NCBI GenBank assembly: GCA_003971905.1
Contig: RSEE01000006.1
Coordinates: 744,001-808,000, forward strand
Direction of reading: 5' to 3'
Length of the DNA: 64,000 bases
Source: Moniliella sp. 'wahieum'
Lineage: Eukaryota
Shown here: positions 2,818 through 64,000 of the stretch, one piece after another
Layout: the number at the start of each line of letters is the position of its first letter
Numbering within the stretch: the stretch's first letter is position 1
Notes under the pieces: model-generated
What the model saw: only the letters and a program-made list of their open reading frames with translations
Databases searched by the model: none
What the model was told of the DNA's origin: nothing
Position numbers and translations under genes: made by a program

Positions 2818-3386
2818 GCGGAACATCGACATGTGCACGGGCCTAGGGCCGGTTCCCAATGCAACGGCTCGCGATGCGCCAAGAGGGCAGGTGAACCCAG
2901 TTTCCGTCCTCCAGGCAGGTCCGACCTTGGCTTAGCGATCAGTGATCGATCATCCTGGTTTGCAATGCCCTGGAAAGGGAAATGCTGCCTCCTTTCCAGC
3001 TAGCAAAGACCTAGCTTTGGCGTGGTACCCTTCAAACCCCGCCACAGGCGGAGCGTAAGACTGATGCTGTAGTTTTCTCTCGCTTTGGCATGCTGGCGAG
3101 GCCGATGATCAATGACGCCGGGAGTTGGTCTGCTGCTGGAAGTTGAAGCTGAGCGCGGAACGTTTCGAAACCAATCTGCCGTGCTCACCCCGCGGAATAT
3201 GTGGCGTTCAACCAGGCAGTTCTAAGGACACGAAACTGACAAAGCATCCATGCCAGAGCTACAATTGCTTATGGGTGGTACACGTTCATGCGAGTGGAGC
3301 TGGGTCCTGGCAGCTGCGAGCCATCGCCCTGATCGTCGTCAAGCGCTGGCGAGAACTGTGATGCGGGCTGTGATCATGGCATGGAT

Positions 3387-3954
3387 TCAGCCCAAGAGCA
3401 ACTTAGTAGCGCGGGCAGCCTTGTCGAGCACTGCGGTACCACAAGAAAGGAGGTTAGCCGATGGGAGGGGGGGAGGGCAAGGTGGGGGAACAGAGGACGA
3501 ACCGGTCTCGTACGACACCTCCGAAAAGTCGGTGCCTTGGATTTCGGTGGAAATGCCAACAAGCGCTTTGCGGATGGCGTCCTTGGAGGACGCGTACACC
3601 ATCTTTTGCTTGATCTTGGACTCGTCTGGGGACCAGGCAAAAAAGCAGATCTTGTTGCGCTTCCCCTCGCCTGCCTTTTCAAACTCGAGGTCGTAGATGA
3701 TGGCTAGCGACAGTCCTGGGCGGGCAACTCAGCGAGGAACTCGTCGTAGTCGGGCGAGTCAGACGTCTTGGCGACTACGATCTCCGTGTTGTCATCCGAG
3801 AGCTTGTAGATAATGTACTTGGTCTTGCCCAGCTTGAGCGTCTGGAACTGATCCAGGCACTCGGGGTTGACCTTGAAGCCGGAGGACTGGGAGAGCGAAG
3901 GAGGGGGCCGCGTGGTCAGTAGCGCTCGGGGGGCCGGATACGGCAACGCACCAT
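3387..3954 (-). CDS. COF1: Cofilin / actin-depolymerizing factor (spliced; indels present)
   Basis: ATG-only first exon (3952-3954), then a GTGCGT..CAG intron, then [48 protein letters not shown] and [33 protein letters not shown] second intron lies near 3432-3504. Confidence 0.95.
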
Positions 3955-3976
3955 AGGGAGTAAAGTGCGGGGAGGA

Positions 3977-3998
3977 GTGGTGGTGGTGGTGGTGGTGG
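3977..3998. repeat. (TGG)n microsatellite just upstream of the cofilin start
   Basis: gtggtggtggtggtggtggtgg seen directly. Confidence 0.85.
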
Positions 3999-4163
3999 TT
4001 GGGCAGAGTGCAAACACCCAAGTCAAGTGTTGGCCAAGTGATGGCAGCGCCGCAGCGGCTGCTTGCCACCAAACCAACCAACCCCATCTGGCGCCACGCG
4101 CGGGGCCTGTGCGGTGGCACGGGGCCAGTGTGACCGACGCAGGACCAGGGGCGGGCAGCGGCG

Positions 4164-4420
4164 GAGCGCTGAGCGCTGACGCGTGACGCGTGACGCGTGA
4201 CGCCCCCACGTGACGCTGGCAGGCAGGGTAGGCTACGCGTGTGGCCTCGTGTTGCTTCGGCCCCGGTCTGACGTCAGCGTCACCTCCACCCCATCCGCGG
4301 AGCTGCTGAGTCAGCCACAGGTGCTCACGTGATGCACGTGATGGCCGGGGGTGATCGATGATCGGTGGTCGATGGTGGATGGTGGATGGTGGATGGCCGA
4401 TGGTCGATGGTCGATGGCGC
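4164..4420. repeat. 7-bp-phased TNA+palindrome arrays in the cofilin/ALDH divergent intergenic region
   Basis: (GAGCGCT)2(GACGCGT)3 at 4164-4198, and a degenerate TGATCGA/TGGTCGA/TGGTGGA run of about 10 units at 4352-4420. Confidence 0.9.
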
Positions 4421-10435: not shown

Positions 10436-10631
10436 TGACCGGTGACTGTCACCAATCAGGTCACCGGTGGTCATCGGTCACCCTGGTATGCGCGACTGAG
10501 CTCCTGCAGAACTTCAGCGCTCAGCCAGGCTTCGGCACGTTCTTGAACGTTCAGTTGAACGTTGCACTTGAACGTTGAATTTAATGAAGCTTGAAGCTTG
10601 AAGCTTGAAGAATGATCGATGATCGGTGATC
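10436..10631. repeat. Cluster of 7-bp-phased TNA+palindrome units
   Basis: TGACCGGTGA at 10436, TCAGCGCTCA at 10514, TGAACGT three times (10544-10575), then in register (TGAAGCT)3 TGAAGAA TGATCGA TGATCGG TGATC at 10585-10631. Confidence 0.9.
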
Positions 10632-13055: not shown

Positions 13056-15895
13056 CCTCTCCAACGGTCTCCCACCTCTTCCGCATGTCATCTGCATTGG
13101 GTTTTCGTCGTCGCCCTGGCTGCTTGTACCGCTTTCTTGCATCCTGGTCTCAATACCACTCCTACTGGACCTTAATTCATCGTCGAGCCAGGGCGGGGGC
13201 ACCACCCCCAACGCGCCGCCCTTGTGCCAACTGCTCCCTCGTGTATCATTGGCCATACTTCCGTTACACCCTGCGTGAACTCAGTGTTTTAACCCATGCG
13301 GGATCAGTACGATCAGTAGTTGCTACTAAGACACGGAGCCGGTAGCAGAACTGAGCAGACAATATGCTGAGGAGGTACCACCGAACATCCGCATCGCAGC
13401 GGGGACTGGGAACAAAGTTCTCATCATATGCGCCATGCATCTTTCTTTTCAGACCTCAGGCGAGGTCAATCTTCCATCCTTTGAGCGTCAAGCCTCTGAC
13501 AATTTCAGGTGCCACTGGGCACGGTGCTTTGCGAACGGGCGCATCAAAAAGAAGGAGCGATCTTCATCAGCTTCATCGATCATCATTAATTATTAACCAC
13601 AGCGCACGTTTTAGCTGATGCGCAACTTGATTCTATTCGGGCCGCACCACCCAAGAAAGAGTCCCCCTCTTAGCATCGACAGGCACCAAGTCAATCATAT
13701 GCTGAGATCAAGGCTTCTGTTTGCTGATCAAAGAGACAGCCAACCTGCACCTACTCTCAGCGATCTCAGCAACAATAGTTTCTTACCAAGCTGAGGGGCT
13801 GGGACTGAGAAAAAACCTTAGCGCACTCGCGCTCACTGCTGCTGCACAGAATGATGGCTTGCCGATTATCGCCTTACTGTCTTACCGGTAAGTAAGGGAC
13901 CTTACCAACGTAACTTGCCCTACCACTTGAAGGGAAAAACGCTTTTATACCGCTGGATCAACCCCTGTGCTCTCTCATTTTGTCCAGTGCCGCCTTCGTC
14001 CATCCAGTGCTCAGACCTTTTCTAGTGCTCGCTCTTGATGTCAACCACCCCTAGTGACCGGTACGCGTTTCCCCCTCAACTCATGCACGATTCCCTTGGT
14101 CGTTGAGACTGACGCTTCATGAAGCAGTATGCGCCTGTACCGCAATCAGATCTGCTGGCGCTGCGACAAACCAACCTGCCCAGATCTTTCGGGGACCAAG
14201 TGTGCCGAGTGCGGACATGCTTACGGAGCACGACCTTTCTTCGTTTCGCCTTGACATGTTCAGTAGGTCCGGCATTAGCGGGAATGCAAGGAGAGAACGG
14301 AGGTGCCCTCAAGACCTACTCACCCGAAACAAACACATCGGCCATCGAGGAACCCTTTCACCCCGAACGGACGTTCCACTATGATATCAAGACAGCCGCT
14401 TCGTCCGCCGTCGCTCAAACGGGAACACCCGAGCCAGAAACTGTGTGCAGGTGTGCAACGCGCGCTACAGAAACGATCGGAGCAGAGAGGTTTACACAAT
14501 GGTGCCTCGTTCTGCTCTCCTATCTTGTTCCATATGTTGACACGATCCTCCACTTGATCCTTGCCCGCCCCTGTCCATCTCTAGAGCGAGATGAGTATGT
14601 TTAATAATCCAACACACCGTGTCTGACCGGATCGATCGAGTCCAAACCTAGGCCTCATCCTCCGTCGTCAATCGTCCGGGGCAGATGGCATGCGTTGCTG
14701 GGTGGGCCAAAGCATTTTTTTCACGCTTGCCACAAGCTTGTGAGCTGACGGGGGATGACCGATGGTCGATGGAGACGTTAGTAAGAAAACAGGGGTGAAT
14801 TATAGTGTCCATCTCGTCGATGAACTGGCAGGAGCGAAGATGCCAGCGGGGCGGAGAGCTCTATATATGCACACGATATGTGCTTCGCAGTGGAGATGAA
14901 ATCTCCGTGCCGTGAAAGGACGAAGATCGGGAGCAATCTTCTGGAACTGGGCGGTGGGGGTGGAGCGTAACGTAGAGGAAGATTGGTATACTGGCGCCAA
15001 GTGAAAACATCGTGTGAAACGAGAGGGTTGTTTGGATTGAGGAAAAGACGGAGGGAAGGGGTGGAAAAAGAGCCTCGGGCACGATACTGCAGCCTCTTTA
15101 TTAATTGTGGTTACCCTTGTCGCTGTGTCTAGAGATAGCGGGTACCCCTGAGAGGGTAGGGAGACGTGGAGAGGGTCGCACACACGCCGCAATGGCCCAA
15201 TAACAGTAGTAGTAACTAATAGTAACCAGTATCCGCTCCGGTATACGGACCACGCCGGCAGAGACATATAGAGAGGTATTATACCAGTCAGGGTTCAGGC
15301 TGAGAGAGGGGAGGAGGGGCACCCTCGGGCAGTGCATGCCTCCCGATCGGAGAGAGCATCAGGCCCAGCGGGCAGGCGCTGAGCGCTGAGGCCGCGCTGA
15401 GGGCTGAGGTTGCCGATGCGCTGAGGTCTTCTAACATCTGAGATTCTCAGATCTGAGATCCAAGATTGGACGAATTGGTACCAATCAGAGCGACGTGAAA
15501 AGGTCACGTGATGGGCACGGCGCCAGTGTAACGTGGGGCTGCTAGTGTCCATCATGAGATTAGATAGCGGAAGAAGATCCGAGCAATGCTGGTAGGCCTC
15601 AAGCTTCAAGCCGCCACTATCTCAAGGCAGTCCATGTAACATGCTACCAGTTACTAGGTTTGCGGCCTTAGGCCTTATCGATCATCGACTCAACCAGAAT
15701 TCGTCCCTAATGACGGCAAGTAACCCGCTACCCACACCCTCCTACCATCTTTAGCGCTCCCGTCAGCTTGTGCGTGGACCACCAGCAGCTGAGTGCAGTG
15801 CCTTTGCATATATACCCCCACCTCAGCCCTCGCCTCCAGCTTTCAACCACCACCCACCTCGTCACCGTGTATCCCTTGGGCCAAAACCCACCAAG

Positions 15896-17748: not shown

Positions 17749-18712
17749 TTCAACCTATTCAACGTTGAACGTTCGTTCAACGTTCTATGTTGACGCGTCA
17801 CGTCCAAGAACCCACTCCCAACTGAGGTGTATATATCCTCCTTTTGCAGCTCTTCCTAGTTACTATTAGTGACTAGTGACAGTTACTAGTCTCGGTCGAC
17901 TCCGAAAGGTCTACACTTGCACTGGTGTCGAAGAGCAGGGTGGTGGTTATGGTGGGCGATGGTAGCCATGGCGCATGGACATGCGTGGGAACTGAAAACG
18001 CGACCAGCTGGGTACAGGCTGCTGGTACAGATGAAATGCATCAGGCAACTTGCAATCATAATGGAGGCTGCATAGAGTGAGCTAGTGCCTGCGCTTCGTG
18101 CGCAGCGTGGCTGATGATCGGGGCCAGAGAGAGTAGGGGTGCACGGATGCGGCAGCAGCAGCACACAGCAAGCAGGCTCAGAATGTGGGGTGGCCAATTG
18201 CTGTTGCCTGAGAGGGCAAAAGGCGCAGCTACAACAGCGCTAATACGCGCATACGCGCTAAATCGGGCCAACATGCCGCACCGGCTGCACGACGCCGGCA
18301 CATACGTGGCGGGTGACATGCGTGACATGCTCCCCCGTGCCGGAGAGGTGGCACCGGCCCGCACACCGTTCCTGTGCCGACATGCGGCAGCGCGGAGGCA
18401 CAGGCACCCAGCCATGCCGACGATCACCTCGATCACCATCGATCAACGATCACCGATCACCGGACGATCATCGCTGGTCGCGAGTCGCGTGGCGCCAGTC
18501 ACCCGTCGCTAGTCTTGGGGGGGCGTGCGGATTGGACCAGTGTTAGGTGTAAGACCTTAGACTTCGGTAAAGAGCCCAGGCCGACCCTTAGGCCTTAGGC
18601 CTTATTAGACTTTACCCGCTCCTTGGGCCTTACCCGCTCCCTGGGCCTTAGAGCTTGGGCTCTACCTGGCCTTGGCCTTACCGCGAGAGCTACGCGTGAC
18701 GTCACGCGTCAC
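17749..18712. repeat. Intergenic clusters of TNA+palindrome heptamers
   Basis: TCAACGTTGAACGTT and TGACGCGTCA (17759-17800), TAGTGACTAGTGAC (about 17867-17880), a degenerate TCATCGA/TCAACGA/TCACCGA run (18420-18473), CCTTAGGCCTTAGGCCTTA (about 18586-18604), ACGCGTGACGTCACGCGTCA (about 18692-18711). Confidence 0.85.
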
Positions 18713-25540: not shown

Positions 25541-25640
25541 CGGTGACCCGTCCGGTGACGTGACGGTGACCAGAGTTACCAGTGACTAGTGACTAGAGTG
25601 ACTAGTGACTAAGATATTATGTGTGATGATTAATGACTAC
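25541..25640. repeat. TGAC-/TGACTAG heptamer cluster in the FDH / amine oxidase bidirectional promoter
   Basis: AGTGACTAGTGACTAGAGTGACTAGTGACTA at 25581-25611 and TGATTAATGA near 25627. Confidence 0.85.
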
Positions 25641-26168
25641 TGTCGTAGTGGCTGGTGGCTTAGCTAGTGGTCGCAGTGATCAATGATATTGATAAGCGAT
25701 GGTGCGGGGCGCTTCTCTGCTGTAGCAAGGCTACAAGCCAGACATCTGCTTCTTCGGACACTGTCATCAAGCTTCATACGCCGTATCTGCACCTGTCCGC
25801 TCTTTTTGACACAACAGTCTCTCCGCATTTTTTCTTTCGGTGGCTATCAACTATCAGCCCTCGAGCATCGGTCACTCAGCCTGATGCATGGTGAAGCCGG
25901 TGAAGCGAAGTGCGGCACACTTGCGCCTGTCCGTCCGCACGGCTCAGTGTCGAGTATCCCCCCTCTTCAGTGTCTCAACCGAGGACCTGGTCCGTGTTGG
26001 ATTTGTGGACAGGAAACTGCCGAAGCAAGGGAGGCCGCGGTCCCACTCCTCGCCTCTCTGCGTGCGCCACCTATTTAACTGTCCTGCAGTGTCTCCTTGC
26101 TTCTTTCCTACAGTTCTCCCATCGTCCATTCACTGACCCCAATCCACTCGACTTCCAGACTACGCCCC

Positions 26169-28809: not shown

Positions 28810-29120
28810 AGCGTTGAACGTTGAACGTGTGTTGTTCAACCCTCAACGTCTCAATGTTGAGCCTCAACGCGCACCCATGGCGCCAGGCTCGGTGCATGCT
28901 GACTGGCTCAGCGCCCAGCTCTGGGCGCTCAGCCTCAGCGCCCTCAGTGCCTCAACGGAGATGGATGGTCCTACATCGGTCACCTTCAAGCTTCAAGCTT
29001 CATCTGTTTTCTTGCGAATCTTGCCTCATCGATCATCAGGCCTCAGGCCTTGATGAGCTTGATGCCTAGATAGGCCGTGTATAGTTTGACGGGCGAGGAG
29101 ATGGGTCACCGGTCACCAGG
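28810..29120. repeat. Cluster of TNA+palindrome heptamers upstream of malic enzyme
   Basis: TGAACGTTGAACGT (about 28815), (TCAAGCT)2TCA at 28986-29002, TCATCGATCA at 29026, (TCAGGCC)2 at 29036-29049, TCACCGGTCA (about 29106). Confidence 0.88.
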
Positions 29121-29983
29121 CCACCGGACAAGCCCGGTCGCTCCTTGTCCCGTCTTGAGCGCCCTGAGAGTGAGTGATCGATTCCCTGCCGTTTTTGTGT
29201 CCGAAGAGAGAGCGCCTGGAAGTGTTGCGCAAAACTCGTCCAGCAGCCCACCCACCCCTAGTTTGATTACCCTCCTGACCCTAGCGCAATACCCCTGTGT
29301 ACCCCGGGACCGGGACCGGGGGACCCCTCTTGACGCATCGCACCCGCCCCCAACAGAGTGCCCTCCTCCCGCTCATAGCTCATCACTGATCGATCATCAA
29401 ACATCCTTAATCATAGCAAACGTTGCCAAGTTGCATACGGCGCGTATATCCTGGTGAGCCACCCGGTCGTTTCCGGTACCTTCGGGACCACCCGGGAACG
29501 TACCCCTGCTGGAGCTGCCCACGGTGGTCTGCTACCTGTTCTCTATAGAAGACCAGCAGCAGGTATGCCCCCTCTAATGCGCTCGCCGCCGGCGTTAGTA
29601 TGTCTGAGACATCGGATGGCCGCATGGAATTAGCGTTAGCGCGCACAAAGTTTGTACCTCACGCACCACACCGCTGATTCTCGGCAGCTGGCCGGCCACA
29701 AAGCAGCTCAGGGCGCTCAGGGCCAGTCTCGGAAGCGCGAACACCTCGCGATATTTTTTACACCAAACTTAACAGGTTTAACAGGGGCCGCAGGTGGCAA
29801 TGCACATGACGTGACGCTGTGCCTGTGGTCTCTTTTACCTGCTATCCCTGGATCCTCGTGTAATAAATAGCACCTGGCTCTTGATTGAGCATTTTGAGTC
29901 AGCTCCATATCTGCCCAAAACAACCCAGCCTCTTTCTCATTCCTCTCTCATCCTCGTCCATATCTGTGCTTGCCTTCGTCGAG

Positions 29984-36709: not shown

Positions 36710-38830
36710 TTACACTCAGTACTCAGTTACTCACTGTACGCTTGCAGTATACTTAGTCTGAGATCTGTGAGTCTCACAGCTCAGCCTGCGACATGCTCAC
36801 ATCATCAGTGCTGGCTGTGAGGCTGCGCTCAATGAGTCTGAGTAGTAGTACGTTTAGTGACTAGCGACTATAGTGAATCTGGAAGCTTGAAGGACGCAGG
36901 TTGGTGCCGCAGCAGAGAGTCACTAGTCAAGCTAGTCACTAGTCACTAGTCAAGCTTCAAGCTTCAAGCGGCATTGCTTCAGAGGTCTGGGGGCGTAGGC
37001 CATTCGCGTAAAAGATGTGATGGATGGGACAGCATGTTCTCAGCGGGCCACATTTTTCGGTCACCAAGGTCATACACGTGGACAAATGCCACGCCGTCAC
37101 AGATCCTCACCGACATTCGCGTGCGCGTGACCGCACCTGAACCTAGTAAAGCTCCTAAGGCCGGCCTAAGGCCTAAAGGGCCTAGGCCCTGAGAGCCTCT
37201 GCGCGTGAGCACCTGAGCCTTTGAAGCATGACCGGTAAACGGTAAACGGTAAACGGTAAACGGTAACCGGTGACCAGTAACCCGTAACGGATTGTGACTT
37301 GTTCGTCCCAGACTATTGTGCCGTCTTGCCACGATCTGCATCCATCGATCCATCGCCGTGCCCGTTCGGGAAATATGTAGAGCGCTCAGGCTGAGCGCCC
37401 CGTGTGGCGAGCCTCTTCAACGTTGAGATCTGAGAGCCGCTGGGTATGATGAATGATGTGCGCATATACTTTTTTCCCCTATATAGATCTCTCTCTGGCA
37501 GATACTATCAGTAGGTCTACACGTGTTATGCGCTGCTACCTCTGCTCTGCTTAATAATCCTCTTCCCAGTGATAGGTCACACAACCACACCAGATGAGAG
37601 GCGCTGTGTGTGAGTTGCGGGGCTCCGGCACCGGTAGCTTTTCAGCACATATAAGGCACACACACATGTACCTCCGCTCCCATCACATGTCGCACAGCCA
37701 TTATCTGCATCATCCCTGTGTGTGGTTTGTTGAAGATCGGTACGCCCGTTATGGTTCCTGGCATTAGTACTTAGTTAGTACTGAGTCTTGTCAGCGATCT
37801 TAATCATTAATCATTCTTCATTTTAACCAATCTCAGCAAGCTTCCGGCCGAGGTGAAAAAACGTGGAAGGTTGCCGTCGAACGGTGGCCGTACGGCTGCC
37901 GGTGACCCGCGGTGATCTGAGTTTGGACCTCCGGGGGAGAGATGCTCGATGGTGGAAGGCGATTTACAGCCAGGGTGTTACATGTTACAGAGGCGTTGCA
38001 TGCTTTTATTACGCGCTAACGCCGCGTAACGCGCAGCGCGTAACGGCTACATGTTACACGTTACATGTTGCGCTTCGCGTTCAAACGTTAATAAAAGCTT
38101 AAGCACTTACGCGCTCATACTGTAAGTACTCAGTACGAAGTATGAAGCTTGAAGCTTGAAGCTTGAAGCTTGAAGCTTGAAGCTTGAAGCTTGAAGCTTG
38201 AAGCACATATCCACGACACACAACATCGCCCGCCACCGCGCCACCCTTAGGCCTTAGGCCTTATAACATCACCGATGCAAGCAGTTCTTCTGTCCGCGCA
38301 ATGTCTCAGGAACACCGCACTCCCCACATATACGGGCACGAGACACCGGATGGGCGTCTTTTGAACGTTGACTAGTGACGCGTGACGCGTGACGCGTGAC
38401 GGTGCATGTGACCTCCGGCTCCCAGTCGGTAGTCCAGGTTCGTCTCGCTCATCGTGTCACGCTCTGTCCATGTGCCCTACAGTATCTCCTATGTGCCTCA
38501 CTGACCCTGTGCCCAGTCCGGCCTCCTATATAGATGCCTCTGCAAGCTGCACCCAGACCCACACGGGCTCCAATCCATCACCTTCTCCTCATCGATCATA
38601 TCCTTCTGCGCGTCCGGCTCTCCCTATAGGCCAATAGCTTCTGTGCTTTGTGTTGTTGTGTGGGGACGCTATTGCACAGAAAAACATTGTGCGAGCGTTG
38701 CGCGTTACGCACAGTCTGCATTGCATGTCACACTTACTGTGCTTCCGCCTTCCGCCTTCCACAAAAGGTTCAAGCTTCATCGACTTCAGCTTCATATATC
38801 ATCGCTCAGCCTCAGCGCTCAGGGCGCCCA
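36710..38830. repeat. Densest field of 7-bp-phased TNA+palindrome arrays in the window
   Basis: TCACTAG/TCAAGCT run at 36920-36969; TGAAGCA TGACCGG (TAAACGG)4 TAACCGG TGACCAG TAACCCG at 37222-37290; TTACATGTTA near 37978; (TGAAGCT)8.9 at 38143-38204; (TTAGGCC)2 near 38247; TGAACGT TGACTAG (TGACGCG)3 at 38362-38400; TCAAGCT TCATCGA..TCATATA TCATCGC..TCAGCGC TCA at 38770-38821. Confidence 0.92.
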
Positions 38831-38988
38831 ACAGTCACAAAAGGCTCAGTCCCAGTGGTCAGTCTGAGCGCTTATTAGCCCGGGAATAGGAACTGTGTGG
38901 TACGCTGCGGTGCTGGCTGAACTGAGGGGGGTAGTGAGACATAAGGTGACGCCGTAAACCCACAAGCCTGGTTCCGTTCGGTATGCAT

Positions 38989-39848: not shown

Positions 39849-41091
39849 TGCATTCTGATATTCCTTCCTGTTAGAGGACAGGAATAATTCCACAGCCTCT
39901 TTAGCTCTCCGATCTCATCATATGCACATGTGCTATGCAATACACTATCAACTGTTTTCTCCTTGGGTTTCTACAAAGTCAAGGTCAACAGCGCCCATAT
40001 ATCTTCATTGGTCATTTTGTATCTCACAGGCTCCAACAACGATAGAAGAGAGGACGATACTAGTGATGGCAGTTGAAAACTTTTCTCCTGCATAATGCAA
40101 TTTTCGGCACAAATCGGGCCTGTCTCCGTAGGTTTCCCCCCATCCGTGGTGGTGCATACATGGTAATACACCCACAGCACATGTTTTCAAGTCCGGGGTC
40201 TGAGGCCCCATCGCCTGAGGCCTGACAGGACTCATGGGTATCTCGATGTGAGAGAGTTGGCTGTGTGAAGCAGCCGAGCGTTCTTTTCTTTTCTATGAGA
40301 TATAGGTAGGGACATTATACACGAGCAAATATCGTCGAAGAGCCAATATGGCAGAAGAGTTCCGAATCTCGCAGATTGCGGTCCCCCTCCCCCTACTCGC
40401 TCCATCTCCCTTATCTGTCTCTCTCCCTACATAGTACATCAGACGTGCCACAAAACGCTTATTGAAGAAGTTGGAATTTGTAGCTCTCCAGTTTCGCCTT
40501 CGTGCTTTATCTGAAGGCTGCCCGGTATAGCTGCGCTGAGATAATCCCGTAATAGAGGATCCCGGAATGCTACTGTAAGTCTCATTCTAGCAGTTTATAC
40601 AGGGCCAATGGGGCAATAGAGCGGCGAAGGAGACTGCGTTGGACAACTGAGGCAGGTGTGCTATGATATATTAGGCGTCTTTCGTGGCCCGCTTTTCTCG
40701 TTCATCTTTTTTCGTCTGACGTTGATCGCTCTTAACTCTCAAGACTTCACCTCGGTTCTCCAGTAGTCTCCTGTATACAATTGTTAACGCTTGTGGTTTC
40801 TTCACGCTTCAAGCTCCATTCCTCAAAGCTTTGCCTATTTCCTCCATATCCTTTTCGTTTCGGCCTGACTACTTTTGCCTCGTCGGGCCCTGGACTGTAT
40901 ACACCCCAACTATGCACCACAACTATGTAAATAGCTTTTGAGACCCCTGGCCTGTGGCAGAGTCGGCGCATTAAGCAGTAGGGTTGTGCATTTGCATCTG
41001 TTTGAAATTGGAATACTACTCCACACACACTATTGTCAGCCGGTTCAGCGCGCTATCTTCCCACCACCACCTCGTTGCCAGTACAGCATTA

Positions 41092-42092: not shown

Positions 42093-43264
42093 CTGGGCGT
42101 GTTCACGCTAATGGCAACGGCCTGGATTCGGTGAACGCGCCGCGTTTATCACAGAGTACTCCTTCTAAATCGCACTGAAGTGCGCGTCTACATGCATACT
42201 GCTTCCTGCATCATGGTGGGGCGAGGCCCCATGATGGAGTTTACGTGCCAGAAGGCGAGGGGAGGGGGCATCTGGCAGCGTGGACACATGTGACACTCGG
42301 CCATGGTTGATGTGAACAATCACGTCAGCCTGCGTACCCACGGCTTTTTCATAAAGTCGCCCATATTTCCTTCCCTCATGGTGTTGAGGAGACTGGAAAG
42401 CAGTTTGGCCAAGCACAGTCGTATACGAGAGGGTAGGGTCCTCGGTCTGACCGGGTGGACAGGCGATGTGCACAGTGTATTAGCGCAACCGAGCCTGCGT
42501 CCCGAAGAAGCCAACGTGCCACACCTTTCCCCGTCTGCCTTTTGTCGGCGATGGATTCATGTGGTGCGTAGCTGAATGGGTAAAGTAAGAGATCCCCCCT
42601 GACGCGTGACCGCCCAAGGTCGAGCTGCAGTGGTGGAATGCGTCCGCACCAGACGCCGAGTCCTGCAGCCATTACGCCGCTCTGGGCAGGGCAAAAGAGG
42701 GCGCTTTACTTGGCCCTATAGCCAGCGCGAACAGGGTCAACGACATGAACTGTCAAGGGTTTGTTCCGCTCAAATGCTCGCCTTCTCAGGTTTTGCGCGC
42801 CTGCTCGCGCCCCCCCAACCGCTCCACTTGGGTGCACTTCTTCCGTACGCCGCTCTTCTCTGCCTCTTTCGCATGATTGAACACATTCTTTGAGAGGCTG
42901 GTCAACCTTCTCATGCCCCATTCAGCCTCTCTGCAAGCTAGTTGTCCATGATGCTGGAACGGTGGACTGGAGCGGTGGACTGGACAGTGAAACGGTCGAG
43001 GATGAGCGCGATGAGCGCCCGATGAGCGCTGAGCCTCAGCGCGCTGGGCCTGGTCCTCTTGTCTCTGCTCATCGTATTGAACCAGCGCGCAATGAACATT
43101 ACCTTGCACAGTTTGCGCATATCGCACCGCTCGACATGCTTAGTCTGCTTCTGGCTGTTGGAGTGTTAGACCACTTGGTGTGATGGCTTGATCGGCCACG
43201 TCGCTGGCAAGCGGAACTGGCTATAGAGTTCCGCGACTCGCCCGCTCTGGATTGGTTACCGTCG

Positions 43265-43517
43265 CGTCCTCGTTCCCAGGCTCCTTCCTCTTCTCCCAGT
43301 TGCACTGCAGGTTGGACTAGCGTCAGTAGTTTACGAGAAGTTATATCTGACTGTTCCCACCCTGCACAGGTGAGCTTCCTGTTCTCTCTCTTCTTGTTCT
43401 CGTCCTGTTTTCTGGCGCTTGTCCTTGTCCACGGTTGCATTGAAGGTTGGACTAGTGTCAATATGTCAATGGCTTACGAGAAGCTACTATCTCTGAGCGT
43501 ATTCCCACCCTGCACAG
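43265..43517. repeat. Diverged tandem duplication (about 135-bp unit)
   Basis: GTTGCAcTGcAGGTTGGACTAG..TTACGAGAAG..TTCCCACCCTGCACAG occurs twice, ending at 43369 and 43517. Confidence 0.8.
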
Positions 43518-43712
43518 TGTAAACGTCCTTAGCTTGGTAGGGTAGCTACTTCTCCTATACGGAATACTTCTCAGTTAACGTTAAAACGTGTAACGCGCGT
43601 AACGGACAACCGCGGTTCTGTCTGGGCTCCCATTGGTGTGACCGATTCATAGCGCTGAACCCATTGATCGCCTTGTCTAGTGTTCGACGTTCGCCCTAGT
43701 CGGCTAGCCCCC

Positions 43713-44011
43713 TGTCACCGAATGACTAAGCTCGCTCCAATTTCCAATTCCTCCTGTGTCTCTCGCTCTTCCCTTCCCTTTTGCTTCTGTTCTCTGCCTG
43801 ATGCCTTCTGTTTCCTCCCACGAACGATCTTGCCTTTCCCCCCGCCTCTGACAGGACCTTGGTCTCCCTCGTTTAGCCCCGACTGTTACATTATCGTTCG
43901 TGGGAGGAAACAGAAGGCATCAGGCAGAGAACAGAAGCAAAAGGGAAGGGAAGAGCGAGAGACACAGGATGCGGAATTGGAAATTGGAGCGAGCTTAGTC
44001 ATTCGGTGACA
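43713..44011. mobile_element. 299-bp foldback / MITE-like element with long terminal inverted repeats
   Basis: Arms 43713-43828 (116 bp) and 43893-44011 (119 bp) are exact reverse complements except for one 3-nt indel. 64-bp spacer, termini TGTCACCG..CGGTGACA, CCCCC on both flanks. Confidence 0.9.
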
Positions 44012-44597
44012 CCCCCATTCTTTCTTGAGCGACTAGTGAAAAAGTCATGTGACATGTGATGTGAGACTGGTCAGTTCGGGACTTCCACAGACGTGTGATT
44101 TGCGGCGGCGCCTGACGCTGGCCAGACGCCAGGCAATCCCAAGCCCATCGCGATGGCGGGCAGAGACGGGAGCAGCACTGCCCCTATGCCAGCATGACAA
44201 CACCGCAGGGTGCAACCCTAGTGCAGAACGGCAACAAATTTGTAAGCGCAGGCGGGCAGTGTGTGTGAACCCTTCTCTCGCCTGGGGCCTCGGCCTTACC
44301 CGGACAGCCACTAGTCACTAGCCTCCCTGCGCTGTTAGTTCCTTAAGCGCACATCATCACACGCAACCGACAGCTGCCCCTGCTGCCTCCCCCCCGTGCT
44401 TGCCTCCTGCTCGCCGTTCGTTGCTTCGTTCGTTGCGGCGTTCGTTGCGGCGTTCGCTGCTGCTGCTCTGCTCCTTCTGCTGCCGCCACCGCCCCCCTCC
44501 CCCCTGCTCCTTCTGCTGCCGCCACCGCCACCCCCCCCTTGCGGTTTCTGCCGCCGCCGCCGCCGCCACTCCCGCCACCAATTCCGCCACTGCCACA

Positions 44598-45963: not shown

Positions 45964-46305
45964 TCTGCTGTGCGTTTCTCTGGCCTGCCCATGGCCGTCA
46001 GGCCTCAGGCTCCAGGTGAAGTCTTGGGCTTTATATGGTGTCTATATGCTGTTTCCCTGTTTTTTACCTCTCGTAATCCATCCGTCTGCACCGCATGCCG
46101 GCGAGTCGAACGTACTGCAACCCGACGACGTAACCTGTAACCACGTAACCATGTCCTCGAGCCAAGATAAGTATGTACCTCGAATCCAGAAGCGAAACGA
46201 GCATCACACATCACATGTCGCATTGATCTCGCTTGGTTGTAAAAGTATCAATTGTGGAGGGGCATCGCAGTGTGCGTTTTGGTGCCACACCTGCTCCTTC
46301 CTACC

Positions 46306-49084: not shown

Positions 49085-49272
49085 CATGGAGTATCGTCGG
49101 GTAGGCGTGGGAATGGCGATGGGGCTGCAGGGCAGTCAAACGGGGCGCACACCCCAGACAGAATAAATATGCCGCGTCCTACCGCACCCCGGCAGCTGCA
49201 ATTGAAACAATCCATCGCGCTTACCCGCAGCTCGTGCCCACCTCCATCACCACTGTCGTCGCGTCTACCACC

Positions 49273-52889: not shown

Positions 52890-53442
52890 GCCGGGGAGCT
52901 CTCGAACATGTGTCTGGTATTCAGAGGATCGGCACATGCGAAACAGAGCTGTTAGCCTGAGGTCTGTGTCGAGGATCCTTCGCGCCGCCCGTGGTTGGGC
53001 CGTGTCTGTCTACCTTCTACCTATCGTGCACCGCATCCCATGTCACAGCCTGTAAGCCACCTCAGGCCCTCTAGCCCAGGCCGCCTCAGCTGAGGGCCCC
53101 ATTAATCAATCAAAATAATACATCATCCATCATCCATCCTCCGTCCTCTGTATCCTATCACCGAGACATGCTCGTTCAGACTCTAGTTTTCAAGACTTGT
53201 TTCACAGACCTCGCACCGCTGCCGCGCGGGTCTATAAAACGGGGCTGCGGACAAGGGGTTTCTCTCCTCCCCCCACCTCCATCAGTGCTTTGCGAGCCAC
53301 TTCTCACCGCTTGCCCCTTAGAGCCTGGTGCTCTTTGTGTCCTACCCCCTCTTCCCCCACAGCTGGATCTGTATCTCCCTTCTCCGAGTCCTGGTGACCG
53401 GTAAACCCCCCCCTCCACCCTTCCGCTCGCAACATCCACACC

Positions 53443-55598: not shown

Positions 55599-56142
55599 CC
55601 GGAGCCATCGACGGTCAGGCCGCCTTGCCTCAGTGTTGATGATCATCTCGCAGGCGCACCTTGGCTTTTTGGGGGGTCCTATGCACTTGAATCCCTGACT
55701 TGTTACTAGCACATGCTCCTAGTGTCACTCTATCCACCGTTCAATGTATATTTCTGTCCATGCAACGGCTATGTACAAAGGGCATAGTATTCGGTTCGTT
55801 CTTCAGACGCAGCAATCGCGTTCGCTTCTCGCCCGCCTGCTGGGTCAATCCGAACCCTGACCTAAAATTCTCCCGCCTGGGGTCAAAGAAACTCAAGTAC
55901 CGTTTTTGTGTCGAGGCCAAAAGAAGGGGTGCATTGGTGTGTTTCCAAGCAAGAAAACATGTTCCGAGCAAGGGAGAAAGGATAGAAAGAAGGAAAGAAA
56001 TGGTGAAAAAAAGAAAGGCAGGAACGCTGGCAGGGGGGAACAAAGGAAAGACGGCAGCCAAGGCAGCCAGCGAAAGGATAAGAACGAATGGAGGAGTAGC
56101 CACGGCAACCAGCAGGATGAACGCAGCTGGGACAGGGTTGTG

Positions 56143-59100
56143 TTAAGCGCTGGCCAAAAGGCGCTCCAGGGCCCGGTCCACACGGTAGTTGCTCGCCTCC
56201 AACGCGGCCAGCACCTTGACACGCGGGAAACCCATTGCGGTCAACTGCTTCACCGGCCGCGCATCGCCCGGCTGAGCGGCATCGGCCGCAGGGGCCGCAG
56301 CAGGGGCAGCGGTAGGGGTAGCGGCAGGGACAGCGGCAGGGACAGCGGCAGATGCTGGCTTCGAGGGGCGCCAAAGGAATCATCAAATGCATCAGCAAAC
56401 GGGGCGGGAGCCGCCGCCTTGGTGGCGACAGGGGCGGTCGAGCCAAACGCATCGTCAAACCCAGCGAACAAATCGGGAGCCTGGGAACGAGAGGCGGGTG
56501 GACCAGACTTGGCCGCGGTGACCGGGGGAGGAAGCAAAGGACGGAGCAAAAGTAAAGTCCGGTTCGAATGGATCCTCCGAGGCTGGCGCCTTGGCCAAAG
56601 CAGCCGAGGCGGCAGGGGGAGGCGCACTAAAGTTGGCAAAGGCAGAGTCAAAGTCGTCCAGAGCCGATGTAGTGGGCGCTGGCGCTGGCGCAGCCTGGGC
56701 ACGCACAGGTACAGCGGGCGGCGCACGACAAGTACTTCCTTCTTCCGGGCGACGGGCCGAACGCGAGCCGTTCAGGTCCTCGGGGCCTCCGTCGTCTTGC
56801 GACGAATTTACCGTCTGTGGCACTGGGGCAACACCAGTGAATGCATTGCCAAATCCATCATCAAAGCGACTCGGCACGGCGGAAGGAGCGGCGGGAGCAG
56901 GAGCGTCGAATGCGCCAAAGGCATCGTCAAACCCACTCGCACTGGCCTTGGGGGGTGCAGGTGCAGGAGCCGACGCGACATGAGAGGCATTGCCAAATGG
57001 ATTGGCAGCCTGCGGGTCCTCGCCTGCTTCCACTCCCCGGGCAGAGGGTGTGGCCGCCACTGAAGTAGTAGCGCCATGGCTTTCCTTTTCGGTGGGGGCA
57101 GCGTCAACCAAGGTGGTGGGTTCAGGAGCAGGGTTCTTGAGCTGCTCCAACTCGTGAGCCAAGCGGTCGTGATCGGCCTGGGCGGAGGCAAGTTGCTTTT
57201 GCGCAATAGCATGGAGCCCCTTTTGGTGGCGGGCGTCCTTGCGCACCTTGTCCACTTCCTCGCGCAGGGCTTGGGTTTGAGCTTCCACCTCCCCCACGCG
57301 AGTCTGCAGGGTCCGCGCTTCCTCCCGGTCCTTTAGTAGCGCTTGCTCCAACTCATCTTTGCTTGCCTTGAGGGCACTGAGCGTGCTCTCTTCATGGATC
57401 AACTCTGCCCGCACCGCCTTGACCTCATCCGTTTGAGCCTTACTTTTGCGTTCCAGCTCCCGCACCAGCTTCCGCTCCTTTTCCAACTCACTTTGAACCT
57501 CGCCGTACCGCCCAGGGCCGGTGGCAGAAGCCGCGGCATCAAAATGTTCTCACTCTCAGGGGCCACTGGGGTGGCTGCGCTCGGCGGGGCTGCCGAAGTC
57601 GATCGAGCCGCCGAGCCCGACGCGGCAGCCGATGCCAATGGGGCAGCCGAAGCGGCAGGAGAAGGAGCGGACGGGTTGAAGTTGTCTTCAAACCCATTCG
57701 TGGCCGGCAGCGGACTCCGGACAACAGCGGGGGATGCGATCGAAGGGGAGGCAGCGGCTGCGGGACCCATGCTACCCGTCCGACTGGGTGGGGGTCTGAA
57801 TGCCGAGTCGGCCCGAATCGGCGGCTGCGGCAGAGGCGCATCGTCGTCCATCAGCGAGAAGAGATCACGCTGTGTCTCATTTTGGGGCGCCGGAGCAGGG
57901 GCTGAGATGTGGCGGAGCGAAGGGGGGATGAGAGTCGAAGGTAGGGTGGAAGGAACTTCTTTCCCTCCCAACTTGCGGTTAATGAGGTGCATGGCAACCG
58001 CAAACTCGTCGCGGGAGAGGGATCCTGTCTGGGTAATATCGGCCAAGTCCCTGAAGAGCCACATTGAGGTTAGTCCCAGAGAGGAAAAAGTAGAGATGAA
58101 GGAAAAAGAAGGACGCACCAAACATGAGCCAGTGTGGCCTCGTCCAGCTTGGACTGCATGAGGAACGGGACGACAGCCGCTCCTTCTAGCGCACCCGTCT
58201 TGCCTGTGTCAAGCCCATCAAAGTACCGATCAAAGTTGCCCTTTTCAGCGGGGCTGATGTCCCATGCGGCTCCAGCGGACACAGGCGCTGCGGCAGCGGG
58301 GGCAACCGAAACAGGACGCAACGAGGTTTGGCCCGTGTGTTGGGCACTAAGCCCAGTCGTTTGAGGCCACACCAGTGTATTGCGATGGAATGCCAGTGTG
58401 TTGCGTTGACACGCCCGACACCCGTCGTGCTGCCACGGAAGGCGAACGGGCAAAGCCGGTAGAAGCGCCGGTGTGCTGGGCGGTGAGCGGGAGCGGGAAG
58501 AAGACCGTTCGTTGCCAAAGAAACCGCCCAATGCAGAACCGGAGCGGGTAGGCCTCACGCCACCAAGAGCCTGCTCGTAGAGACCAGGCGGCAGGCTAGT
58601 CGGGAGGGAGGGTATGTCGTTGTTCATGTGTGCTGATAAAGTACATGCCCAACGTAAAGTCGGTCAAGTCGAGCGCCCCACGGCTGCCGGTGTCGGCAAG
58701 AGTCAGATGGCGCCGAGCTTGTCCCAAGGCAAGTTGGACTTGACAAAGATGTCGCGGGCCTTGTCGCCCTCGAGCAAGCCGCCGACGGGCGCAGCAGAAG
58801 CAAAGATGCGGCTGTAGCGGGCACGGTCGTCGGCGGTGAGGGGCGGAAAGGCAGGGATGCGGCTGAGGGCTGGGGCAGAGTGATGCCGTCAACTGGGGTG
58901 GGGGGGGCGGGCTGGGCGATGAGAGCGGGTGATGGGCTGGCCACGCTGGGCATGGGCGACGAGGCGGAGTGCGACGCTGAAGGCGGGCGGGGTCAGGAAG
59001 CCGTTTCTTCCTGGTCGGCAGGCTCCAGATCTCGCTGAGGGTGGAGGCAGGCAGGCGGGGCGGGCGCGAAGAAGCGGACGGCGTCGGCGCCGGAGATGAG

Positions 59101-59184
59101 GCCGTGTTGGATGGGTCGGCGAGGCGCCAGAGATGGGCAAAGGCGGGCGCCTCGGGGCGAGAGCGCGATGCTGGGCACGGGCAT
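56143..59184 (-). CDS. EDE1: EH-domain endocytic scaffold Ede1/Eps15 (three EH domains, coiled coil, DPF/NPF/FDDAF motifs, C-terminal UBA); indels present
   Basis: FAHLWRLADPSN..ISGADAVRFF..LSEIWSL; WDISPAEKGNFDRYFDGLD..SKLDEATLAHVW|DLADITQTGSLSRDEFAVAMHLI; coiled coil at 57150-57490; UBA LTAMGFPRVKVLAALEASNYRVDRALERLL. Confidence 0.92.
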
Positions 59185-59638
59185 GCGGCAGGCACGGGGG
59201 GGGGCAGGCAGGCGCCGAAGAAGGCGGTTGCGTGGTGAGGTGAGTGGTGAGCGTCGCCTGAACGCTGAGCAGCGCCGAGGCTCAGCCTGGGTCTGGGTGC
59301 GCCCATCCGAGACGTGCTGAGTCCGAGGCGCGCTGGCCGCTGGCGCTGCGACGGAATGCCGCTCCCGGGCGGAAGCAGCGGGGCGGAAGCGGAAGCCGCT
59401 TTGGGTATTAGTAGTGGGTGTGGCGGATGCGCTGATGACGCGATGACGCGCTGCTGGTCGCTGCGCTGGTCACCTGATCGGGCTGCCCCGATAAGCAAGC
59501 GGTGATGACGTAGGCGGCGGCTCCTGTTTGTCCAGTCACGTGCACCCCGCCGCCGGTGGCGCAGCACAGGGCGACAGGCGCCAGGCCGAGGTCATAGGCA
59601 GCAAGTTGGACCTGACATATACTCCCACCCACCGCACC

Positions 59639-61915
59639 ATGTCCTTGGATGCCGATCGCTTGGCCGCCACCGTGTCTGCGTGTGCTCAACTCCATCCGGC
59701 CACCCTCCACAAGCCGCGCCCCTTCCCTCCCCGCCGCCATCCTGGTTGCCCGCTCCACGACATCTTCCAGGCCTCCCTCTACACCGTCTGCGAGGGCAAT
59801 GCGCTGTGGTACCCCTATGCGGCCGCATCGGCGATGTGGCATTCGAGTCGCGACGGCCCACCTCCAGGTCCTCTTCAATGCCCTCGACGGCCCCCCCGTC
59901 TCTGAGCCGACTGCGACCCAGAATGCCCCGCCCCACCCTTATCCGCCCGCCCGCCGCACCAGCAGGCGCAGCCACAGTCACAGCCCCAGCCCAGCCCCAG
60001 CCCCATCAGGCGCACCTCTCGTTCCCATCTCTTCCAGCCCCCGCAGGCGCGATGTGCCCGCCCGAATAGCTTCCTCGTCCCCTACCAGCCCCACCCCTCC
60101 CTCCCCTCCCCTCCCGCACTCTTTTCACGCCCGGCGTCTCGGGCCAGCTGCGTCGGCAGGCCTCTCTGAGAGATATGCTGCATCTCCCCCATCACCGATA
60201 CCCTGTGCACCGCCCTCCCGCCCTCGACCCGGCGGTGCTGAACCTGCAAAAACCACGAGATGGCCTAGTGCGCCACGCTTTTCCCGTGACGTGAGCTGGG
60301 TCAAAGCGGCCCCAGGTGGAGGCTTTCCTGTGCATGGACTCCCCGTGGGCGGTACGCTGGGGTTTACCGTTGGTCGCGATGATGGCGCAATCATGGTGTT
60401 GCGCAACCCCGTAGAGCGTGAACTGAGCCTGGCCCAAGGCGTTGTTCGAGCTTACCTGTCTCAGCACATGGGATGGATCATGCAAACATATGCTCCCACC
60501 TTCAATTTACGCGAGGGTGACGTTTTCTTCATCACCACCGTCGAGCGTACCTCGGATTGGGCCTTTAGTGTTCACCATAAGGCAGAGCGTGCCTTTGAGA
60601 TGACCTGTTACATTTCCCCCTTTGTCAACACAGGCTTCTGGGGGCATTGGGGCTGCCACTGCAAATGCCAAGCAGGGTCCTCCCCGGACGACGACGGGAA
60701 GCTATTCCAGCCCCACGCACAGACCACCCCCACTCTCACTTCCCATTCCCCCCACCTCAACCTCCCCCTGCAACACCCCTTCCAAACAAGCCACCTCGCC
60801 TCTTGCGCAAACGTATGCACATCCCTCCACGTGGTCCCCGAGACCGTCCCAATTCACCGCCTCCCCTTCCTCCAAAGGACAAAGCCAAAGACGCAACTCT
60901 CCACGAAGTGTCCCTGGGGCCTGTCCCTTCTTCGGACCAGTCATTATTTGGCTGGGTCCCCGCGCCTGTCACGCCCAGCTCTGTTGGGGTTATATTTGCT
61001 CCTACCCCTTACCAACTCAGTGTCCCCACCAGTGCCCCGCCCTCTGGCATCGTTCCTTCCCAGGCCCTGGGGCAACCTGGGTTCCAATGGGGGACTCAGG
61101 CGCAAGTCGGACTGACCGGTACAGGGCCCAGTGGAACTTACTCTGTTGGACTCAATGCCTCCTACCAATCGCCTCTTTCAGTGGGCACGAATTTGGGGGG
61201 CGGAGGACCGGCACCGTCACCTATGCCGGCCCTCAGCGTTGGCCAATCGACCCAGCCTCCCTTCTTGGGATCGGCTGCTCCAGCCGGTGCAACGCCGATC
61301 CCAATGGAACCTGCACATCCCGAAGGACTGTTATCCAACTGGTGGGCCATGCATCCTTCTACTGCCTCCTTACCCCGAAGCCAAGCGGTTGTCATTCGTC
61401 GGCAAAGTCTCTCCCGGCCCTTGTTGCTGCACGCGAGCGCTGATGACGGACGCCCCTCTCACTTGCCCCCCCGTCCGTCCGATGGCGAGGGTTGCCAGGA
61501 CCCGCTCCTCCATCTCCACTCCATCCTGCACTGGCACGCAGGTGCTGCCAATCCCACCTGGGCCACGGACCAGCTGGTTGCGCACCTGCTCCGTAAGACC
61601 CTCTCTTTCAGGAACGGCACGGTGGAGAAACGGTTGTGGGCGGCGGCACAATGGCTCGAGGTGTATACGGAAGATGGAGTGGTGCTAGGCCGGATGCGGT
61701 CTACCCCTCGTCCGTGGGTCGGCCCGGTGCCTAGGATTGCTTGTCAACAGACCTATAACGAAACTTCACCCCCACCTGCCAGGTCTCCCGCTGCGCCCGA
61801 GCAGCGCTTGGGGATACCTCTTGTCCTGCGCTCCGCTACTCCCCGCTCGTCGGATACCTCTTCGTACACCAGCCCACGCCGAAGTCCCTTGTCGCGCAGC
61901 CGACCTGTAGCGTAG
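59639..61915 (+). CDS. Hypothetical protein, candidate gasdermin-like fold with Pro-rich insertions; indels present
   Basis: EGNALWYP..RIGDVAF..VLFNAL; PVGGTLGFTVGRDDGAIMVL; VVRAYLSQHMGWI..DVFFITTVERTSDWAF; later SQAVVIRRQSL and DPLLHLHSIL. The gene is credible; the fold call is inference only. Confidence 0.5.
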
Positions 61916-62057
61916 CCCAGATGCTGCAATCACACAGGAAGGAAGCAGGAATCACTATGAATGTGTGTGGATATATAAAACTGCGGTACCTGTACCCCAT
62001 CGGAAACCAATTCTGAGTGTGCCATGCATGAGGTAAGACAGCGAGGAGAAGGCGGTT

Positions 62058-62568
62058 TTAGGCCACCAGCTGAATCACACCGCCCGCCTCCTTGATCTTG
62101 TACTCGGCGGCAGCCGAGACAAAGCGAGCCTTGACAATGAAGGGGAGCTTGGGAAGGTTGCCCTTGGCGAGCACCTTGCCGTAGCCAGCGGCCAGGTGTC
62201 AATGACAGGCACCTCGGTCGAGCTCTCCGTCAGGCCCTCGCGCGCCGAAGCCGGGACCAAGGTCCAGAGCTTGTCCAGGTTGATCACAGGGCGCCAGTAG
62301 TGGTTGTCAAGCTGGTGGAAGTGGCGCATACCGACCTTACCAAAGTACCCAGGGTGGTACTTGTCAAAGTTGGTGCGGTGGTGGTGCTGACCACCGGCGA
62401 GACCGCGACCACCCGGGTGCTTGCGGTGCTTGCTGTTGTCGCACGGGTCAGCGCATGCCTTGGGCCAACAGCAAAGGCAGGAAAAGAGAGAAGTACGCAC
62501 CCGATACGGCCGTGACCGGAGGAAACGTGGCCACGGTGCTTGCGGGTGTTGTGCAGACGAGTGGGCAT
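62058..62568 (-). CDS. RPL28: 60S ribosomal protein uL15 (yeast L28 / L27a)
   Basis: [23 protein letters not shown]|intron|[56 protein letters not shown]. Confidence 0.97.
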
Positions 62569-63128
62569 GGCTGGTGGTGGCTTGGCTCGAGTGGGATCAG
62601 GCCGAGTTGGGGCATTCAAAGGCGGCCCTGGCCGCAGGCGTTGGCCGTCGTGTTGTGCAGTAGGGTTCCGCACAGGTGCACAGGGGCAGTGTGCTCCTAC
62701 CGCAGCATTTTATTTTTCCAATGTAGGGTTGTCTCCCCCTCTCAGATCTTCGTGACCATGGATTCGTCTTTGGATCGTGGTATGATTCGTGGTTCTACTA
62801 CCTCAGATCGACTACAGCACGGGTGACCTTCAAGCTTCACTCCGGAAAGAATCGGATGTGTTTGGATATCATATCTGGTCCATCACGGTTTACCTTTCCA
62901 AGTCCAACGACAACCGTTGAGATGTGACGCATTCGGTGCGCTGTGCCCTGCGCCACCTCGATGCTACGGCAGGAATTGAGCTTGCTGGCGGAGGAAGGGG
63001 CAGGAAAGTGATCGTGCAGCCGGCCGAGCAAGATCAGGAGGGGCTGAATCGATGGCAGCTGTCGATGGCGGGTTGCCTGTTGACCGTCGGCAGGTGAGGC
63101 AGCTGGTCAAGCATCTTTTCGAATTGAA

Positions 63129-63184
63129 CGAGCGAGCTTAAATGGTTGTTCATCTCGAGCGAGCTTAAATAAGGTTGTTCATCT
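63129..63184. repeat. Tandem duplication of a 27/29-bp unit
   Basis: CGAGCGAGCTTAAAT(AA)GGTTGTTCATCT occurs twice. Confidence 0.85.
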
Positions 63185-63467
63185 CTTGAGGCCTTTTAGG
63201 ACCCTGAGTCTGACTAGAGCTAGTCATATTCTTCTGCTGCATCGCCATCGAGTCATCACCAAAGCCTCAGCGATCCTTCAGGTATCGGATCTCTCATCTT
63301 CCATCTCTGAGAGGCCTGAGGGCCGGACGTGTAACAGACACGGACACTTGTTGTAGGATGCGAGATGTGAGTGGCGAGAGGCATCGATGATAGTACAGTC
63401 ATGGAAGTGGCAGCAATGCGGGGGGAGGGAGGGCAAGAGACCGGCGAAGCGGGTGCACCAACAACAT

Positions 63468-63991: not shown

Positions 63992-64000
63992 GGCAGGCGG

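Follow-up and report, generated by a model that had tools for sequence, protein, structure and literature searches.

Intergenic DNA in a 64-kb stretch of a fungal contig (RSEE01000006.1, positions 744,001 to 808,000, Moniliella sp. 'wahieum'; the whole stretch is hereafter called the window) repeatedly carries a short unit in which almost any 4-bp palindrome stands between two T-N-A trimers. This pattern is real, strong, and sharply defined, and its units are most likely mutational scars rather than functional elements. All window counts given here come from the 64 kb of this one contig. The window contains 215 TNA-N4-TNA decamers; the core is self-complementary in 88 of them, where 1/16 (~6%) would be expected. 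Decamers that combine a palindromic core with an identical N in both trimers number 69, versus an expectation of 2.1 set by 30 second-order Markov shuffles, a 33-fold excess. Both comparisons bear out the preliminary description of this DNA, which had proposed such a family of units. In the same shuffles, the class departing from the grammar by one mismatch occurs 101 times versus 48.5 expected, and more distant classes match expectation. The non-coding proxy, set against stop-free frames of at least 150 aa that cover 66.6% of the window, holds 50 TGA/TCA units where 0.8–1.2 are expected (~45-fold, with a maximum of four in 100 shuffles), and 4-bp palindromes as such make up 6.2% of its 4-mers, indicating no overall excess.

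Counts of palindromic and non-palindromic cores in XYZ-N4-XYZ decamers are 38/14 for TGA, 23/27 for TCA, and 7/6 for TTA, with the remaining 61 of the 64 trimers yielding 0–7 palindromic cores among 3–59 decamers. Other symmetric trimers (ANT, CNG, GNC) are not enriched at core length 4 (16 observed, 19.6 expected). For TGA/TCA, 61 palindromic cores of length 4 stand against 6.4 expected, and no excess was found at other core lengths: nine versus 9.2 at length 2, one versus 0.8 at length 6, and likewise no enrichment at length 5. A peak at length 11 (16 cases) merely reflects two units in succession. Direct trimer orientation prevails, as 69 of the 88 palindromic-core decamers have the same N and 19 a different N, and the inverted TGA...TCA or TCA...TGA form accounts for seven. 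Fourteen of the 16 palindromic 4-mers serve as cores (AATT and ATAT are missing), in near base-composition proportions (chi-square p=0.075); the 12 cores named earlier are all present, joined by TGCA and TATA. TNA also proved the right description of the trimer, as units take up 103 of 819 non-coding TGA/TCA sites (12.6%) and 28 of 367 TTA/TAA sites (7.6%), a per-site frequency only ~1.7 times as high for TGA/TCA. Among units with TTA/TAA trimers, the core is GGCC in seven of eight same-trimer palindromic decamers, at four loci (15668-15684, 18588-18604, 37167-37176, and 38247-38263). These TTA/TAA-GGCC units are the one subclass that fits PIF/Harbinger-type elements with GG ends.

The core of a unit is coupled to the bases outside its outer trimers. 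Flank bases that continue the 7-bp period number 84 of 128 at ±1, 75 of 128 at ±2, 47 at ±3, 40 at ±4, and 30–41 beyond, the baseline of 24–32% being that seen from ±4 outward. The right-flank dinucleotide equals the first core half at 34 of 64 loci (p about 1e-24) and the left-flank dinucleotide equals the second core half at 27 of 64 (p about 1e-16), each against 1/16 by chance. Both sides match at 12 loci, one side at 37, and neither at 15, a distribution fitted by independent matching with p=0.48 per side (chi-square 1.6). A template taken from exactly one flank was rejected, as it predicts ~4/51/9 (chi-square 24–26). Most often the periodicity reaches a total of 2 nt into the flanks (19 of 64 loci), with 12 nt, short of 14, as the most frequent length of a periodic stretch. 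Plain 7-bp tandem duplication and 7-bp target duplication were likewise rejected, since they need at least four extra periodic bases, present at only 22 of 64 loci. Isolated non-coding TNA sites lie inside such odd palindromes in 8.1% of cases, compared to 6.3–7.3% for control trimers; they are not palindromic beforehand, and the flank match therefore arises with the event. It follows that the agent favors targets that match, for instance by pairing 2 nt at its ends with them, or else that part of the filler has the flank as its template. One speculation is that 2-nt single-stranded element ends, pairing with target flanks during capture, would yield the coupling.

Of the 64 loci into which the 88 units resolve, 54 hold one unit and five hold two; the others are arrays of 3, 4, 4, 5, and 8 cores. 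Depletion from coding DNA, previously judged by eye, held up when counted: stop-free frames of at least 150 aa wholly enclose 11 of the 88 units versus 47 of 127 control decamers in which a non-palindrome stands between the TNA trimers, and a Copia-like frame at 2-2521 contains none. All nine cluster positions listed earlier contain units. At 44000-64000, where the window is rich in genes (PHD, SNF2, and long open frames), its right third has only four of the 88, at 44050, 45998, 53395, and 62830. Clusters and units are listed below, with dots separating trimers from cores.

4164..4417, a cluster of TGA.GCGC plus three copies of TGA.CGCG, a single TGA.TCGA unit, and a worn (TCGATGG)9 array.
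10436..10631, a cluster between opposite-strand open frames, with cores CCGG, GCGC, ACGT (twice), AGCT (three times), and TCGA.
13573..13891, units including the abutting pair TCA.TCGA.TCA / TCA.TTAA.TTA, and also TTA.CCGG.TAA.
15376..15690, units upstream of an MFS-type open frame, with cores GCGC, GATC, and AGCT and the mixed array TTA.GGCC.TTA.TCGA.TCA.
17749..18712, units with cores ACGT, CGCG, and CTAG, two copies of TTA.GGCC, and CGCG.
25541..25776, units between alcohol dehydrogenase (- strand) and copper amine oxidase (+ strand) frames, with cores CTAG (twice), TTAA, and AGCT.
28810..29396, units with cores ACGT and AGCT (twice), an abutting TCGA/GGCC pair, CCGG, and TCGA.
36710..38874, the largest cluster, some of whose components are itemized in the next four lines.
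36936-36966, within the largest cluster, TCA.CTAG twice plus AGCT twice.
37229-37273, within the largest cluster, a worn (TAAACGG)4 array between perfect CCGG units.
38143-38201, within the largest cluster, a (TGAAGCT) array with eight cores.
38362-38399, within the largest cluster, the mixed array TGA.ACGT.TGA.CTAG.TGA.CGCG, with the last repeated three times.
40216..40673, single units TGA.GGCC.TGA and TGA.TATA.TTA.
42600..44059, single units with cores CGCG, GCGC, ACGT, and CATG.
62830..62839, the single unit TCA.AGCT.TCA.

At 10537-10579 the word TTGAACGTT occurs three times at a 13-bp period (Tandem Repeats Finder periods 13 and 7), so duplications bigger than one unit also arise within clusters. 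Two complete units abut without a common trimer, through a TCATCA junction, at 13573-13592 and at 29026-29045, the latter pair being TCA.TCGA.TCA / TCA.GGCC.TCA.

Nearly all period-7 tandem repeats reported by Tandem Repeats Finder in the window are units or their one-step derivatives, and period 7 dominates the short repeats. Repeats of 5-mers at lag 7 number 453 versus ~120–140 at adjacent lags not divisible by 3, dropping to 194 with the units masked. By hand tally, six junctions between adjacent cores are mixed and 18 identical; when insertions hit non-coding TNA sites at random and independently in a simulation, 4.1 ± 1.9 shared-TNA events are expected, compared to the six mixed junctions. 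Neighboring cores in one array may differ completely, by 2–4 paired changes (TGA-ACGT-TGA-CTAG-TGA-CGCG x3 at 38362), and point mutation of a homogeneous array is therefore no explanation. Perfect TAA/TGA-CCGG units lie on both sides of the worn (TAAACGG)4 array, and the worn (TCGATGG)9 array continues a TGA-TCGA unit; both are one-mutation derivatives, yet both expanded further, to 4–9 copies. In single-strand folding against shuffles, z is 0.30 for (TCGATGG)9 and -0.10 for (TAAACGG)4, versus -7.2, -4.0, -4.2, and -2.2 for perfect arrays. Because non-folding worn arrays still expanded, palindromy arises at the birth of a unit, with no later upkeep. Slippage copies units regardless of symmetry, which counts against both hairpin-driven expansion and selection for symmetry. 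Whole 7-bp units are thus copied by ordinary replication slippage, palindromic or not, and every event makes a new TNA that is open to another event, giving rise to mixed-core arrays. The one-mismatch excess (~52) is below the perfect-unit excess (~67), so that units are young on average.

Our favored interpretation, which we hold tentatively and at somewhat less than even confidence, is that the units are scars left when a transposase-like process duplicated TNA, and that slippage amplified them later. A transposase-like enzyme would make a 3-nt staggered break at T-N-A in open non-coding DNA, and fill-in of both overhangs would create the direct TNA...TNA repeat. Each end would bear two extra nucleotides, mutual mirror images, and joining of the ends would produce the 4-bp palindrome, for a net gain of +7 bp per event. 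Of these parts, the enzyme, the break geometry, and the origin of the two extra nucleotides per end are what we infer; transposon insertion followed by imprecise excision of the mariner kind is the best-known source of such geometry (PMC4561436). The preliminary description had offered this model as a TNA duplication plus 2 nt left by each transposon end. What stands in its favor is the direct repeat (69 decamers with the same N, 19 with different N), the fixed 4-bp symmetric filler, the predominance of single-unit loci (54 of 64), and the agreement of the mixed junctions with the number expected from random re-hits. The weakness conceded there, that many different termini are needed, is real given the core spectrum, and the coupling between core and flank is not predicted by the model.

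Several observations weigh against this interpretation. The near-random cores (14/16, p=0.075) would call for numerous transposon families whose ends differ. A search of the window for inverted-repeat ends next to a TNA duplication produced 26 matches, 15 of them within one array, versus 14 and 23 for control trimers, and no donor element rose above controls. No DNA transposase domain was present in the 83 (24 + 59) open frames of the 64-kb window that were scanned, and the sole long inverted repeat (43713-44011) is flanked by CCCCC instead of TNA. Footprints of end joining usually vary more in length than these units. Simple end remnants fail to predict the flank coupling, which reaches 34/64 on the right and 27/64 on the left against a chance of 1/16. 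In the best-studied superfamily with TNA/TWA targets, PIF/Harbinger, mPing excises precisely according to the accessible part of PMC4561436. A simple "terminal repeat remnant" version of the scar interpretation fits poorly. Possible, though we are more inclined to doubt it, is an undescribed lineage-specific process in which a T-N-A-cutting enzyme acts on open intergenic DNA and writes one flank-coupled 4-bp palindrome per event, ~1/8 of non-coding TNA sites being already marked. Its enzyme would perhaps be a domesticated PIF/Harbinger-like nuclease, or its agents very active elements with unfixed ends.

A rather unlikely alternative does without transposon ends altogether: flank-templated break repair would turn TNAxy into TNAxy.y'x'.TNAxy. 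Such a repair signature would be peculiar to the lineage, and a domesticated nuclease that cuts at TNA might drive it. Near-random cores would follow because flanks are themselves near-random, and this account is consistent with matching to the core at ±1 and ±2 over a baseline from ±4 outward, with the commonest flank extension of 2 nt, and with isolated TNA sites that are not palindromic beforehand. This account fails on the flank tallies, as a one-flank model calls for ~4/51/9 rather than 12/37/15 and neither side matches at 15 loci, on certain cores in mixed arrays that match no neighbor (e.g., ACGT at 38362), and on the direct orientation of the trimer. Copying by fold-back predicts an inverted TNA...TN'A, found in only 7 of 88, and fold-back template switching was ruled out on the ground that it predicts an inverted trimer. 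Hairpin products with a 5-bp duplication are absent from the window apart from trivial cases of the forms predicted for hAT/Transib-type hairpins (TNAxy.N'A.TNAxy three, its mirror one, and a period-9 form one). The earlier suggestion of hairpin-mediated or template-switch repair shares this balance: it would explain the coupling, but the rarity of the inverted form and the lack of 5-bp-duplication footprints speak against it. To our knowledge, no known mechanism yields a direct trimer with an inverted dinucleotide.

Explanations that invoke later expansion, selection, or error are less convincing still. It is improbable that the units form a selected regulatory or structural promoter code, made of dimeric-factor sites or serving nucleosome exclusion. 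Units are intergenic and often lie between divergently oriented genes, a small halo of one-mismatch forms exists, and some unit hexamers presumably resemble known palindromic sites. However, no sequence is conserved, with 14 of 16 cores used near-randomly; units also lie downstream of genes (6340 after an aldehyde dehydrogenase frame, 17759-18711 after an MFS frame); worn non-palindromic units were amplified; and proteins would be expected to read bases rather than symmetry per se. The selected code entertained in the preliminary description is therefore disfavored, as non-palindromic derivatives expand freely and sequence is not conserved. Readings as bZIP, heat-shock, or MluI-box sites were dropped because there is no single conserved sequence, and the notion that period-7 TGA arrays serve to place a stop in each of the three frames was abandoned given the predominance of single-unit loci. 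Quite improbable, too, is an origin as heptanucleotide microsatellites in which self-complementary units expand preferentially through single-strand hairpins. Such microsatellites share with the units period-7 arrays that gain or lose whole units, and this origin draws on the lead of period 7 among short tandem repeats (453 lag-7 5-mer repeats versus ~120–140), on the strong single-stranded folding of perfect arrays (z -7.2), and on paralogous copies in one metagenome contig (L042) that differ by one 7-bp unit. Here, by contrast, the grammar of the unit is fixed as TNA plus a palindrome, 54 of 64 loci are single and below two full periods, the effect is restricted to TNA and does not extend to ANT, CNG, or GNC, neighboring cores differ by 2–4 paired changes, and non-folding worn arrays attained 4–9 copies. 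An assembly or base-calling artefact is scarcely credible: the pattern depends on position and is seldom met in long open frames, it comes with a worn halo and with arrays of mixed cores, and units of the same form occur on a few unrelated fungal metagenome contigs.

The excision footprint of Tc1 is TA-CATG-TA. According to the accessible part of PMC4561436, mariner-type elements leave a target duplication plus their own end nucleotides, and the footprints of Tc1/mariner (Stowaway) elements, whose cuts are staggered inside the element, resemble the units in placing a direct target repeat around a short symmetric filler of fixed length. Here, however, a 3-bp TNA is duplicated instead of TA, the filler takes 14 of 16 sequences instead of one per element family, and no donor elements were found in the 64 kb. 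The PIF/Harbinger (PHIS) superfamily shares the 3-bp symmetric T-N-A target, of which only TGA, TCA, and TTA are enriched here. Within it, the available text of PMC4482050 describes a NuwaII group, in two basidiomycetes, with TNA duplication, a C|TNA|G target that accepts any N, and inverted repeats mostly starting with GG; extended palindromic targets are known in PHIS elements from the same text. GG ends would give GGCC cores only, whereas GGCC is found at 6 of our 64 loci (four of the six flanked by TTA/TAA), and the C...G flank is not needed here. PIF/Harbinger ends start with G or A (GG in NuwaII) and excision is precise, as far as the accessible parts of PMC4561436 and PMC4482050 go, whereas scars are abundant in the window and cores start with all four bases. 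Footprints of hAT elements and the P nucleotides of V(D)J recombination are also short break-made palindromes coupled to the flank (Ac/Ds background in the accessible part of PMC4561436). P nucleotides, however, pair with the flank end itself, predicting TNA.TN'..., which is not seen.

A likeness by description comes from Ustilago maydis, where numerous unexplained intergenic 10-bp repeats have been termed transposon footprints (Laurie et al. 2012 and Schirawski et al. 2010, as cited in the accessible part of PMC4081816), 26 of them lying between the effector genes of cluster 19A (PMC4081816, same part). Subphylum, size, abundance, intergenic site, and proposed origin are the same; the accessible part of PMC4081816 does not give the sequence, and in one enzyme the window fungus shares no more than 63% identity with named relatives. 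The existence of the pattern may well have been noticed before in a related model fungus. A full-text literature search, with most subscription journals outside it, returned no description of a TNA plus any 4-bp palindrome grammar or of flank coupling, and literal array strings gave 0 papers. The searchable supplements of PMC4081816 contained no relevant text (four of its files were outside the search). The grammar, the near-random cores, and the flank coupling appear undescribed in the searchable literature.

If the units are scars, ~64 independent events are recorded in roughly 21 kb of non-coding DNA, and the process would supply promoters of a compact fungal genome with indels on a large scale and in a sequence-specific way. 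Every event would also make an A-xyy'x'-T hexamer, a potential binding site for a dimeric protein. Textbook transposon footprints leave the near-random cores and the flank coupling unexplained, so the pattern could expose either novel transposon behavior (target choice by 2-nt end pairing) or a new repair signature. Should the lineage-specific process be true, it would bring continual promoter-length variation and new 6-bp palindromic sites to Ustilaginomycotina. If the units are the same as the U. maydis repeats, these long-unexplained "10-bp repeats" would gain a concrete and testable definition.

A metagenome scan seeded with the TGAAGCT array found at least 121 stretches (L001-L121) with (TGAAGCT)n arrays of at least three units, mostly plain and from many taxa. 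Many of these contigs look prokaryotic (open-frame coverage above 0.9) and lack other palindrome-core units. Pooled over the 62 loci of at least 3 kb, palindromic cores other than AGCT number 23 of 405 (5.7%), which equals chance; the grammar is therefore not universal, and the metagenome pool is a useful negative control. A weak signal, in the form of a few extra units or mixed arrays, came from five fungal-looking contigs (L042, L068, L025, L071, and L077), among them the Russulaceae-like L068 (HIRA 85% identical to Lactarius), L071 with DUF6535, and L077 with an NLR-type domain. L042 (1-20024) consists of tandem ~5.5-kb paralogous segments, 80–89% identical, each of which carries an open frame for an AAA_11/UvrD-like helicase. 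Its units are largely paralogous copies inside these 5.5-kb tandem duplications, and the paralogues are told apart by a single TGAGATC unit and by how long the TGAAGCT-type array is. Metagenome contigs with low open-frame coverage, when pooled, gave 13 of 138 palindromic cores (9.4%; hand tally), and on this basis we make no claim that the grammar extends to Agaricomycetes.

The window is nuclear DNA of a Ustilaginomycotina fungus, with a G+C content of 57%. The best named matches of a copper amine oxidase fragment have 59–63% identity and come from Meira, Tilletiaria, Ceraceosorus, Jaminaea, Microstroma, and Tilletia. Genes backed by Pfam include aldehyde dehydrogenase, MFS transporter, GH79, alcohol dehydrogenase, copper amine oxidase, malic enzyme, and histidine phosphatase, along with PHD and SNF2 proteins. 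One further feature lies at the left edge.

2-2521, a Copia-type reverse transcriptase fragment (RVT_2, E=1e-37) in an 839-aa open frame that runs past the left window end.

The only long repeat in the window is a 299-bp foldback element at 43713-44011. Its arms are ~116–119 bp long (perfect segments of 77 and 39 nt), separated by a 64-nt loop, and its ends are TG...CA. CCCCC stands on both sides of the element, resembling a 5-bp target duplication rather than a TNA.

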